Virus record (IMG/VR): IMGVR_UViG_2711768056_000005
Direction: 5' to 3' (one strand)
Length of the DNA stretch: 64,000 bases
DNA from: a virus
Lineage: Duplodnaviria; Heunggongvirae; Uroviricota; Caudoviricetes
Both the position numbers and the translations under genes were made by a program. The notes below the pieces were generated by a model that saw only the letters and a list, made by a program, of their open reading frames with translations, was not told the DNA's origin and made no database searches. Positions 52,586-54,010 of this stretch are shown one piece after another (the stretch's first letter is position 1; the number at the start of each line of letters is the position of its first letter).

Positions 52586-52866
52586 TGAGTGTCGTGCAAT
52601 AGATGTATTATTTGTGATGAAAAATAATGCAGAGGGATATTGTTACTTTAAGATGGATATCAATAGTCGATACATAAATTAAGTTAGCAATAAACTATTA
52701 ACTTAAGAAATAATGCAGGTGGTGAACTTATCTCTGACTTTTCAGCTATACACAATAAGTTAGGGATAGCTTATAAAAAGTTGATTATTTGATATAAGTC
52801 AATGGGAGTATTCTTGTTTACTTTCCGTTCTCGTGGTAACTTCTCGCCGGTTTTTGTTTTTCTGGG

Positions 52867-53388
52867 ATGATTCTTATGTCTAAAAAGTATACTTTATGCG
52901 CTCTTGTTGTATCTGCAATTCTTCTTTCTGGGTGTCAATCTAGCGGTGCTGATTATGCTGCCGATGTTTATGATACCGCTCAATTGAATTCGAAGCAGGA
53001 AACAAAGACAGTCAATATTATCTCTGTGCTTCCTGCTAAAGTGAAAGTTGATAATAAAGCTAATAAAGAAGCGGCACAGACATTTGGTGCGGTACTGGGA
53101 GCTGTTGCTGGGGGCGTTGCCGGTTATAATGTTAAAGGCACATCGACACTGGGTGCTGTAGCTGGCGGTACTGGTGGTGCGGCTCTTGGTGCAGCGGCTG
53201 GTTCTTTGGTTAGTGATAAAACAATTGTTGAAGGTGTTTCACTGACTTATAAAGAAGGAACTAAGGTGTTCACTTCAACTCAAGTTGGTAAAGCATGCCA
53301 GTTTACAACGGGGCTTGCTGTGCTTATTTCAACTAAAGATAATGAAACTCGAATTCAGCCAAATGCTACTTGTCCAGAAAAGAAATAA
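52867..53388 (+). CDS. Glycine-zipper lipoprotein (173 aa)
   Basis: Lipobox ILLSGC, then GAVLGAVAGGVAGY...GAVAGGTGGAALGAAAGS glycine-zipper segment. Confidence 0.55.
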   Translation: MILMSKKYTLCALVVSAILLSGCQSSGADYAADVYDTAQLNSKQETKTVNIISVLPAKVKVDNKANKEAAQTFGAVLGAVAGGVAGYNVKGTSTLGAVAGGTGGAALGAAAGSLVSDKTIVEGVSLTYKEGTKVFTSTQVGKACQFTTGLAVLISTKDNETRIQPNATCPEKK

Positions 53389-53391
53389 TTT

Positions 53392-53931
53392 ATGAATAAA
53401 ATTATTTTATTTCTAATCTTTTCTACGTTTAGTGTAGGCACTGCCTTGGCTAACTCGTTGCAAAGTCAAATTGCTGCTATTGCTCAGGCGGAAAATGAAG
53501 GGCGAGCTAAAGAGCAGCAAGCTGAGGATGCCAGAAAAGAACTTATTCGCCAACAAGCACAAGCTGAACGTATTAGAAGAGAAAAAGCAGCATCTGCCGC
53601 TGCTGCACGCGAAAAACAGCGTGTTGCTGCAGAAAATGAACGTAGAGCGAAACGAGAAGCCGAGCTAGCAAATGACAAGAAGCGAGATCAAGCTTATGAG
53701 GATGAGCTTCGCAAGCTGCAACTCGAAAGCATGAAACTCGAACTGCAAGCAAAAGCGGCTCGTGTCCAGCGAGAAAACGATTTTATAGAGCAGGAGTTGA
53801 AGGAGAGAGCAGCTAAGACAGATGTAATTCAGTCTGAGGCTGATGCAAATAGAAATATTTCTACAGGAAGTAAAGATTTACTGCAAAGCGAAGGAAAAGC
53901 TAGAGAGAAGAAAGCTAGCAGTTGGTGGTAG
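53392..53931 (+). CDS. Secreted Lys/Ala/Glu/Arg-rich coiled-coil protein (179 aa)
   Basis: N-terminal signal peptide then low-complexity charged repeats; starts 4 nt after the lipoprotein gene. Confidence 0.5.
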   Translation: MNKIILFLIFSTFSVGTALANSLQSQIAAIAQAENEGRAKEQQAEDARKELIRQQAQAERIRREKAASAAAAREKQRVAAENERRAKREAELANDKKRDQAYEDELRKLQLESMKLELQAKAARVQRENDFIEQELKERAAKTDVIQSEADANRNISTGSKDLLQSEGKAREKKASSWW

Positions 53932-53970
53932 TAATCACTACGATTGCGAGCATACTGTCACAAATGACAA

Positions 53971-54010
53971 CTCGTAGAATCTGTTAACAAACTAGATTCT
54001 ACGAGGTTTC
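53971..54010 (+). terminator. Terminator-like long hairpin
   Basis: CTCGTAGAATCT-N11-AGATTCTACGAG perfect 12-bp stem followed by GTTTC. Confidence 0.5.

Follow-up and report, generated by a model that had tools for sequence, protein, structure and literature searches.

Between the immunity region and the tail operon of a P1-like phage sequence (IMG/VR virus record IMGVR_UViG_2711768056_000005; Caudoviricetes), of which we analysed a stretch of 64,000 nucleotides (hereafter the window), lies an AT-rich cassette of two genes that encode a lipoprotein (open reading frame 1, ORF1) and an exported helical protein (ORF2). We favour, with some reservation, the reading that in this cassette a paralogue of the bacterial yfgH-yfgI envelope operon, mobile and rich in AT, gives the lysogen a second outer-membrane stabiliser. 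On sequence and profile comparison, ORF1 is a full-length member of the YfgH/SlyB-like family of glycine-zipper outer-membrane lipoproteins, and ORF2 is a DUF5384 (YfgI) protein. Genes of these two kinds form a conserved two-gene unit across the Gammaproteobacteria, and both genes of the cassette are under strong purifying selection.

This region of the window is 99.0-99.4% identical in nucleotide sequence to the P1-like phage-plasmids phi456, RCS47, JL22, P7 and SJ46, and the two reading frames correspond to upf50.5 (ORF1) and upf50.0 (ORF2) of P7 (99% nucleotide identity, as also to other P1-like phages). The P7 record labels their products 'outer membrane lipoprotein of unknown function' and 'membrane protein of unknown function', respectively, and its annotation already records the likeness of both to E. 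coli K-12 proteins. The annotation of both genes has been known for about two decades, and the variability of the slot they occupy has been published; what we add are the precise allelic junctions, the assignment of the pair to the YfgH/SlyB and DUF5384 two-gene unit, and the frequencies of the alleles.

A YfgH/SlyB-like lipoprotein and a DUF5384 protein

ORF1 is collinear with K-12 YfgH over its full length (67% amino acid identity over 171 amino acids), and the profile of the ORF1 family matched SlyB (PDB 7ojf and 7ojg; E 1.1e-9), likewise over the full length (query residues 9-163 against residues 6-154 of 7ojf); this second relationship was found by the family profile only, single-sequence searches of the PDB having returned no match. 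The protein begins with a lipobox (LSG/C) whose cysteine, Cys23 (codon at nucleotides 52933-52935), is followed by Gln, not Asp, at position +2, as fits a lipoprotein destined for the outer membrane, and is invariant in 45 of 45 aligned homologues. Further along are a GxxxG/A-rich glycine-zipper helical hairpin (residues ~63-114) and a C-terminal beta domain with invariant cysteines at positions 144 and 169, an arrangement matched by the predicted secondary structure (strand at 45-62, helices at 64-88 and 94-113, then beta strands). Across this 45-sequence family alignment, ORF1 keeps every invariant column and departs from the consensus at none of the columns that are at least 90% conserved; the most divergent segment of the mature protein is the loop of the hairpin (residues 89-95). 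The glycine-zipper family of Pfam (PF05433) matched weakly (E 0.0023; 18.2 bits vs. a gathering score of 24.2), and 27 of the 45 family members match it. Only the top Foldseek match was used from the AlphaFold2 monomer of ORF1, a low-confidence model; this was SlyB, the sole significant match (E 2e-6; template modelling (TM) scores 0.49/0.58), in agreement with the sequence profile. As to where the gene begins, an alternative start at ATG 52876, which gives 170 amino acids, is more likely the true one than the annotated ATG 52867, because a GGGA lies 9 nucleotides upstream of it and 170 amino acids is typical of the family, whereas the annotated ATG has no spacing from the G-rich stretch.

ORF2 matched DUF5384 (Pfam PF17358) at 147.8 bits vs. 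a cut-off of 25 (E 3e-43; profile positions 4-145 of 145), and is collinear end to end with K-12 YfgI (47% amino acid identity). Its Sec signal peptide of 20 amino acids ends at an AxA cleavage site (...TALA/NS), and a cleaved signal peptide is also annotated in the P7 record; the mature protein contains 19% Ala, 14.5% Glu, 11% Arg, 10% Gln and 10% Lys and has no cysteine. An earlier note on this DNA, made from the sequence alone, had described the two products as a glycine-zipper lipoprotein and a signal-peptide-bearing Lys/Ala/Glu-rich protein, and both descriptions hold, the lipobox, the hairpin, the cleavage site and the composition all being as expected, with a Pfam match for the zipper that is weak. 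The same note had called ORF2 a coiled coil, and this we do not regard as established because the heptad signal is weak (hydrophobic residues at 12 of 45 a/d positions in the best register). What is modelled is a long alpha-helix: AlphaFold2, run with a 55-sequence alignment, returned a single uninterrupted helix over residues 3-178 (mean predicted local distance difference test score, pLDDT, 87), and in the mature protein helix was predicted for ~155 continuous residues. The DUF5384 alignment falls into three parts, namely a conserved N-terminal motif directly after the signal peptide (SLQxQ(I/L)xAxAQAE), a charged middle of variable length, and a conserved C-terminal half that ends in an aromatic pair (SWW in ORF2); to us this layout looks like a spacer linking two binding ends.

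That ORF1 and ORF2 are real genes and not chance reading frames is confirmed by the DUF5384 score, by the hundreds of homologues found for each, and by the low ratio of nonsynonymous to synonymous substitution rates (dN/dS 0.077 for ORF1 and 0.100 for ORF2, at dS ~1), measured against the nearest mobile relative, an E. coli island copy flanked by transposases. The two genes also travel together: among 80 species loci (one genome per species, from Enterobacterales, Pasteurellaceae, Pseudomonas, Aeromonadales and a few others), 78 have a DUF5384 gene directly downstream of the yfgH-like gene and on the same strand. A distant DNA search with the cassette was positive for 5420 of the 5426 complete E. 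coli genomes (~69% nucleotide identity), and the chromosomal matches, among the matches listed, are the yfgH-yfgI operon, which in K-12 sits between yfgG and guaA.

Codon composition separates the cassette from this chromosomal operon. The G+C content at third codon positions (GC3) is 0.24 in ORF1 and 0.31 in ORF2 vs. 0.43 and 0.50 in K-12 yfgH and yfgI, while three other mobile copies fall between 0.23 and 0.34; the cassette therefore belongs to a separate, AT-rich mobile lineage and is not a recent capture from E. coli. Of these mobile copies, one in Salmonella lies at a prophage end among tail-fibre neighbours, beside ORF6N and DUF4376 genes, and one in E. coli lies at a prophage end beside P2-like tail genes. 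Phage TL-2011b (NC_019445, record 41360-44784; 67% identity) was considered as a second phage carrier and rejected as host flank: its yfgHI pair is chromosomal, a prophage-boundary artefact, because a pdeF fragment, a small ORF and yfgG-yfgH-yfgI follow there in K-12 order.

Set against the E. coli yfgH-yfgI operon as a whole, the phage cassette has the same genes in the same order and tight linkage, with near-identical lengths (173 and 179 amino acids here vs. 172 and 179 in K-12), and shares the lipobox, the glycine zipper, the invariant cysteine pair and the signal peptide. It differs in residing on a phage-plasmid instead of between yfgG and guaA, in an AT-rich upstream region that is not conserved, in its much lower GC3, in the divergent hairpin loop, and in belonging to a mobile lineage found in prophages and islands. 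With SlyB, ORF1 shares the lipid anchor, a beta segment, the two-helix glycine-zipper hairpin and the C-terminal beta domain in a full-length match, whereas identity is ~25% and the profile alignment shows no shared conserved cysteine pair. SlyB forms rings, as seen by cryo-electron microscopy, and a ring for ORF1 is a prediction by analogy. In E. coli, SlyB is not known to be encoded beside a DUF5384 partner.

A putative second outer-membrane stabiliser

By analogy with the host proteins, we judge it likely that the phage pair has membrane-stabilising activity of the YfgH/YfgI type. Deletion of yfgH worsens lptD defects, causes sensitivity to vancomycin and lowers the levels of outer-membrane proteins (PMC3219608). 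A 2025 preprint reports that YfgH stabilises the outer membrane, that its deletion causes sensitivity to sodium dodecyl sulphate and ethylenediaminetetraacetic acid (SDS/EDTA), that its overexpression rescues knock-downs of outer-membrane biogenesis, that it interacts with many outer-membrane proteins, that clsA mutations suppress its deletion, and that AlphaFold3 models it as SlyB-like rings (bioRxiv 10.64898/2025.12.22.696046); the passages of it that we searched make no mention of a phage homologue. The Salmonella Typhi orthologues (srgIL) are strongly induced by SdiA together with acyl-homoserine lactone (PMC11619404). For YfgI, the literature found concerns the DNA-damage sensitivity of mutants and nothing else, and our literature searches returned nothing on DUF5384 and nothing on this cassette in work on phage-plasmids.

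We propose that both proteins would be exported by Sec, that ORF1 would then acquire its lipid at Cys23 and be directed to the outer membrane, and that its helical hairpin would oligomerise into rings of the SlyB/YfgH type that hold outer-membrane proteins and lipids together. ORF2 would form a periplasmic helix of ~23 nm, conserved at both ends and variable in the spacer between them, that partners the lipoprotein from the periplasmic side. The lysogen would in this way gain a second stabiliser copy, under prophage control and beside its chromosomal yfgHI, amounting to a lysogenic conversion of the envelope. The identities of the two proteins are those given above, and it is from homologues that we infer lipidation, outer-membrane sorting, ring formation and the cooperation of the helix. 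Such a pair might also measurably hinder the entry of superinfecting phages, which would be compatible with a stabilising activity, although we hold this addition to be somewhat less probable than its opposite.

One observation on a mobile relative touches the same biology: the E. coli copy adjacent to P2-like tail genes (contigs L008, 4104-5378, and L009, 4095-5366) has just upstream of the pair a 424-amino-acid PLDc_2 gene, that is, a phospholipase D/cardiolipin-synthase-like gene, which is notable because of the suppression of the yfgH deletion by clsA mutations.

The sim slot: boundaries, control regions and alleles

The coordinates of the cassette and its neighbours are collected in Table 1. 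The earlier note had placed the pair between the immunity region and the tail operon, behind ~280 bp of AT-rich intergenic DNA, as a coupled gene pair, and had pointed to sim of P1 at this position, and all of this is borne out: immI (C4, icd and ant1) lies to the left and pmgC-tub-pmgB-sit to the right, the two genes are separated by 3 nucleotides (TAA TTT ATG) on the same strand, and in P1 (AF234172) simA-simB-simC fill exactly the same interval, from the C1 operator Oc4/Op51 to LPsit/pmgC. The cassette thus stands in place of sim as an alternative allele, its end points being those of simA-simB-simC in P1. On the left, the swap has its junction between 52583 and 52584, within the final two bases of the operator, which already differ from P1, and homology with P1 resumes at ~53960.

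Table 1. Features of the cassette and its surroundings in the window
Feature	Position	Strand	Remarks
kilA	50028-50828	minus	left of cassette
ant1/ant2	50993-52036	minus	left of cassette, with icd (immI region)
C4 antisense RNA	52302-52387	minus	Rfam RF01695, 69.6 bits
C1 repressor operator Op(c4)/Op51	52569-52585	minus	17 bp, AAATTTATTAGAGCAGG on the + strand; P7 annotation mapped, P1 annotation, three-allele alignment
Whole exchangeable module	52584-53959	+	1376 bp, GC 0.41; P1 homology breaks on either side
Upstream AT-rich region	52586-52866	+	281 bp, GC 0.32; flanks GC 0.47-0.49
ORF1, yfgH-like lipoprotein gene (P7 Upf50.5)	52867-53388	+	173 amino acids as annotated
ORF2, yfgI-like DUF5384 gene (P7 Upf50.0)	53392-53931	+	179 amino acids
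Late promoter LPsit	53962-53980	+	P7 and P1 annotations, alignment with P1, derived late-promoter consensus
Inverted repeat (hairpin)	53965-54011	+	folding, alignment with P1
pmgC/tubA	start 54012		right of cassette
tub, pmgB			right of cassette, after pmgC
Sit	56178-59474		right of cassette; 1098 amino acids

To the left of the operator, the minus strand at 52414-52495 resembles the Hfq-binding RNA isrK of Rfam at a sub-threshold score (43.7 bits vs. a gathering score of 50); this match overlaps the a1/b1 target region of c4, which matches RF03163 above threshold at 52456-52508.

The 281 bp upstream of ORF1 presumably hold the cassette's own promoter. A relaxed sigma-70 scan returned weak candidates only, two of them at the AATAAT inside a direct repeat; this exact 11-nucleotide repeat (AAATAATGCAG) occurs at 52622-52632 and 52708-52718, 86 bp apart, each copy holding the -10-like AATAAT, and the copies may act as weak promoters in tandem or may bind a regulator. 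With a late-promoter consensus derived from the six annotated promoters of P7 (AAGTGACTT-N4-TAnnnT), the best matches upstream of ORF1 (52677 and 52796) have three mismatches, a chance-like result in AT-rich DNA, and a comparison of the upstream regions of five yfgHI-like pairs yielded no conserved motif. The cassette is probably expressed from the prophage, because this would parallel sim and because no late promoter was found. The 10-mer CAAATGACAA occurs at 53669 and again at 53961, and we disregarded it because chance alone would produce roughly one repeat of this kind in 1.5 kb.

Behind ORF2 the earlier note had seen a long-stem terminator. A strong stem-loop is indeed present (arms 53965-53982 and 53994-54011, with a perfect 12-bp stem at 53971-53982/53994-54005; folding z-score -5.4), but we rejected its reading as a Rho-independent terminator: its tail (GUUUCAAUG) is not a U-run, a terminator scan made no call, and the structure both overlaps the -10 hexamer of LPsit and is conserved in P1. 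LPsit, which drives the pmgC-tub-pmgB-sit operon, consists of a -22 box (AAATGACA, 53962-53969) and a -10 hexamer (TAGAAT, 53975-53980), the latter within the left arm of the hairpin, while the pmgC Shine-Dalgarno sequence (GAGG, 54003-54006) lies in the right arm. The same arrangement is found downstream of simC in P1, outside the swapped module. Because the hairpin is kept 3' of simC and holds both the LPsit -10 and the pmgC ribosome-binding site, it belongs with LPsit to the conserved backbone and not to the cassette. Late transcription is predicted to start in the loop, and hence only read-through transcripts from the accessory genes would be able to fold into the hairpin; in these, the folded RNA would hide the pmgC ribosome-binding site, and late transcripts would be free of it. 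We infer that the hairpin would shield the tail operon from the accessory module, as an insulator or a leaky terminator.

The slot is polymorphic. Published work counts the sim region among eight stretches of P1-like phage-plasmids that are low in GC and highly variable (PMC9603915), and the sim genes are dispensable for P1 (PMC10695390). Counting places that cover at least 80% of the query in the 5426 complete E. coli genomes, we found the pmgC-tub backbone in 484 (~9%), the yfgHI-type cassette in 182, complete P1-type simABC in 127 and a complete allele of the type of phage vB_EcoM-Ro157c2YLVW (NC_050153; hereafter Ro157c2) in 79, so that the yfgHI type is the commonest allele at the sim slot, in more than one-third of backbone carriers. 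In PLSDB the entire module, upstream region included, is at least 99% identical in 168 plasmids, with reading frames intact; their hosts are E. coli, E. albertii, E. fergusonii and Salmonella enterica, and the plasmids, among the matches listed, measure 80-133 kb. The Ro157c2-type allele codes for two proteins, of 215 and 158 amino acids, both with Sec signal peptides, and every protein encoded by the three alleles found at the slot is exported.

Some observations on the other alleles deserve mention here. In the 215-amino-acid protein of the Ro157c2 type (L011:1783-2430), residues 122-168 match residues 895-937 of Sit (GMRxxVQGTLEERARGxGT; 49% identity, E 8e-9), which suggests that the slot concerns the injection machinery; a periplasmic copy of this piece of Sit, an injection transglycosylase/tape measure, could serve as a decoy in superinfection exclusion. 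Past its first 10 residues, P1 SimA (52 amino acids; L002:4753-4911) agrees almost residue for residue with the N-terminal ~35 residues of that 215-amino-acid protein and then diverges, and simA for this reason looks like a truncated remnant of recombination between alleles and not like an independent gene. Elsewhere, near ssb, P7 (AF503408; L095:25531-26646) has a further envelope accessory gene, for an NmpC-type outer-membrane porin precursor.

Stabilisation weighed against exclusion and other roles

Several points weigh against a second stabiliser copy as what the cassette provides. The AlphaFold2 monomer of ORF1 reached a pLDDT of only 56, and ring formation by ORF1 is extrapolated from SlyB and from the AlphaFold3 models of YfgH described in the preprint. 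A consensus sigma-70 scan of the + strand of the upstream region returned no strong site. YfgI/DUF5384 is without an assigned role even in E. coli, and nearly all hosts own yfgHI, which makes it hard to see what a second copy would add unless its regulation or specificity has diverged. Finally, exclusion genes are what the slot otherwise carries, and this speaks for a role in phage competition more than for general robustness.

In the principal alternative the pair is dedicated to superinfection exclusion or entry block, a functional analogue of P1 Sim in which an outer-membrane ring and a periplasmic rod have been co-opted; P1-like phages, or phages that use outer-membrane proteins, would be stopped after adsorption, either because the tail tube or Sit is obstructed on its way across the envelope or because receptor proteins are enclosed. 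We consider this rather unlikely, and its support, which comes from position, makes it plausible. The pair is an exact allelic replacement of simABC, and sim superimmunity is said, in work credited to Devlin (1982) and to Kliem and Dreiseikelmann (1989), to be a superinfection-exclusion phenotype; the three slot alleles code for exported proteins only, the Ro157c2-type allele has its Sit segment in a secreted protein, and yfgHI-like pairs adjoin tail-fibre genes in the Salmonella prophage and the P2-like prophage of E. coli. Exclusion lipoproteins such as Cor and Llp typically lie beside tail-fibre genes; Cor (phi80, N15 and HK022) and Llp (T5) are small, accessory phage outer-membrane lipoproteins, encoded near tail or receptor-binding genes, that act on the envelope, and they differ from the yfgHI-type pair in being unrelated in sequence, in being single genes and in inactivating FhuA. 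As its receptor, P1 uses the lipopolysaccharide core and not an outer-membrane protein, so that P1 itself would escape any masking of receptors. The resemblance to Sim is one of place and not of sequence: slot, orientation and junctions are the same, the products are likewise exported, and the DNA is AT-rich and non-essential for the phage, but the Sim proteins have signal peptides with no lipobox, whereas ORF1 is a predicted outer-membrane lipoprotein. The comparison with P1 simABC proposed in the earlier note gave no homology (BLASTP against SimC, E 0.044 over 30 amino acids for ORF1 and no meaningful match for ORF2; no similarity to SimA or SimB by eye). Neither protein resembles Sit, and a direct comparison of ORF2 with Sit gave no sign of a Sit-like segment such as the Ro157c2 allele has; PADLOC-DB held no family matching either protein at E <=0.1, an NCBIfam search returned noise only, and the residues conserved in the housekeeping family are all kept, the hairpin loop being the only sign of neofunctionalisation. 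The candidacy for exclusion raised by the earlier note is thus reasonable from the sim slot, the third exported allele and the tail-fibre-adjacent pairs, and is left without backing from Sim similarity or from the defence-family search.

A more distant parallel is TraT, the outer-membrane lipoprotein of IncF surface exclusion and serum resistance (PDB 9fsm and 9e2v), which like ORF1 is drawn from a co-opted chromosomal family. Weak profile similarity to it recurs over the hairpin and flanking strands, the TraT oligomer being anchored by an alpha-helical barrel, and 38 of the 45 ORF1 family members match PF05818 below threshold (best E 2.5e-7). We rejected membership of ORF1 in this family (23.1 bits vs. 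a gathering score of 31, profile positions 74-160 of 214), and the TraT structures rank second and third, without significance, in the ORF1 fold search (9e2v and 9fsm, E 0.08-0.18, TM ~0.2); TraT moreover has ~225 amino acids with an extracellular ring domain, vs. ~150 in mature ORF1. We read this as a distant relationship and not as membership. As a precedent it speaks for exclusion, in that plasmids have repeatedly co-opted this chromosomal outer-membrane lipoprotein (PMC11733297). Combining these strands, the sim slot might be a hot spot for envelope effectors, whose commonest allele is a housekeeping outer-membrane stabiliser (a YfgH ring with a YfgI rod) co-opted for a new kind of exclusion that would bar the way to Sit and the tail tube or enclose receptor proteins, a suggestion we regard as more doubtful still than a dedicated analogue of Sim.

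Other explanations fare far worse. That the cassette is a neutral passenger, bacterial DNA hitch-hiking with no selected role, would suit a slot that is a low-GC recombination hot spot (PMC9603915), but is very unlikely given the low dN/dS of both genes, the intact and near-identical module in the 168 plasmids, its rank as the commonest slot allele, and the independent gain of similar pairs by other prophages. An adjacent lipoprotein and helical periplasmic protein with an N-terminal hydrophobic segment bear a superficial likeness to a two-component spanin, in which an outer-membrane lipoprotein and an anchored periplasmic coiled-coil protein fuse the membranes at lysis. This we hold to be highly improbable: the pair has its orthologues in a core chromosomal operon that occurs across the Gammaproteobacteria in non-phage contexts, the lipoprotein gene comes first, ORF2 has an AxA cleavage site and no cysteine once mature, and the cassette stands outside the lysis genes with no late promoter before it, the other slot alleles having no such pair. 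Outer-membrane spanin subunits are short and proline-rich, whereas mature ORF1 has ~150 residues with a glycine-zipper hairpin. Least credible of all is a role as virion structural or tail-assembly proteins, or as an enzyme ('DNA methyltransferase'), for which labels in GenBank OR339795, RefSeq and phrog_1277 and the tail operon next door could be adduced. These labels contradict one another and the annotations of P7, RCS47 and SJ46; both proteins carry export signals, one of them with a lipobox, and their homologues are core chromosomal genes; P1, which lacks these genes, makes normal virions, and the cassette lies upstream of the late promoter. Homology to virion components, which the earlier note had named as the finding that would speak against its proposal, was thus not found, the tail labels being contradicted by sequence features and by other records. 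The labels themselves are a misannotation that is spreading through the records: the lipoprotein is called 'DNA methyltransferase' in phrog_1277 and in RefSeq phage records (NC_050152, NC_042128, NC_031129 and NC_019445), and phi456 (OR339795) names the two proteins 'minor tail protein' and 'tail tip protein'.

We therefore return to the cassette as a paralogue of yfgH-yfgI that would supply a second outer-membrane stabiliser. P1-like phage-plasmids are common in gut Enterobacteriaceae and often carry resistance genes, and because more than one-third of backbone carriers have the cassette, many natural lysogens would make a phage-encoded second copy of a stabiliser whose host version has been characterised only recently. 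The slot with its three alleles (sim, Ro157c2 type and yfgHI type) offers a ready-made comparison. Should the sim slot prove to be a site of envelope effectors, this would give DUF5384 its first assigned function and a parallel to the co-option of TraT by plasmids; should the cassette block phage entry, it would represent a new exclusion mechanism and a handle on the function of YfgI/DUF5384; and should it harden the outer membrane, it would be a lysogenic-conversion trait with consequences for the tolerance of bile, detergents and antibiotics.

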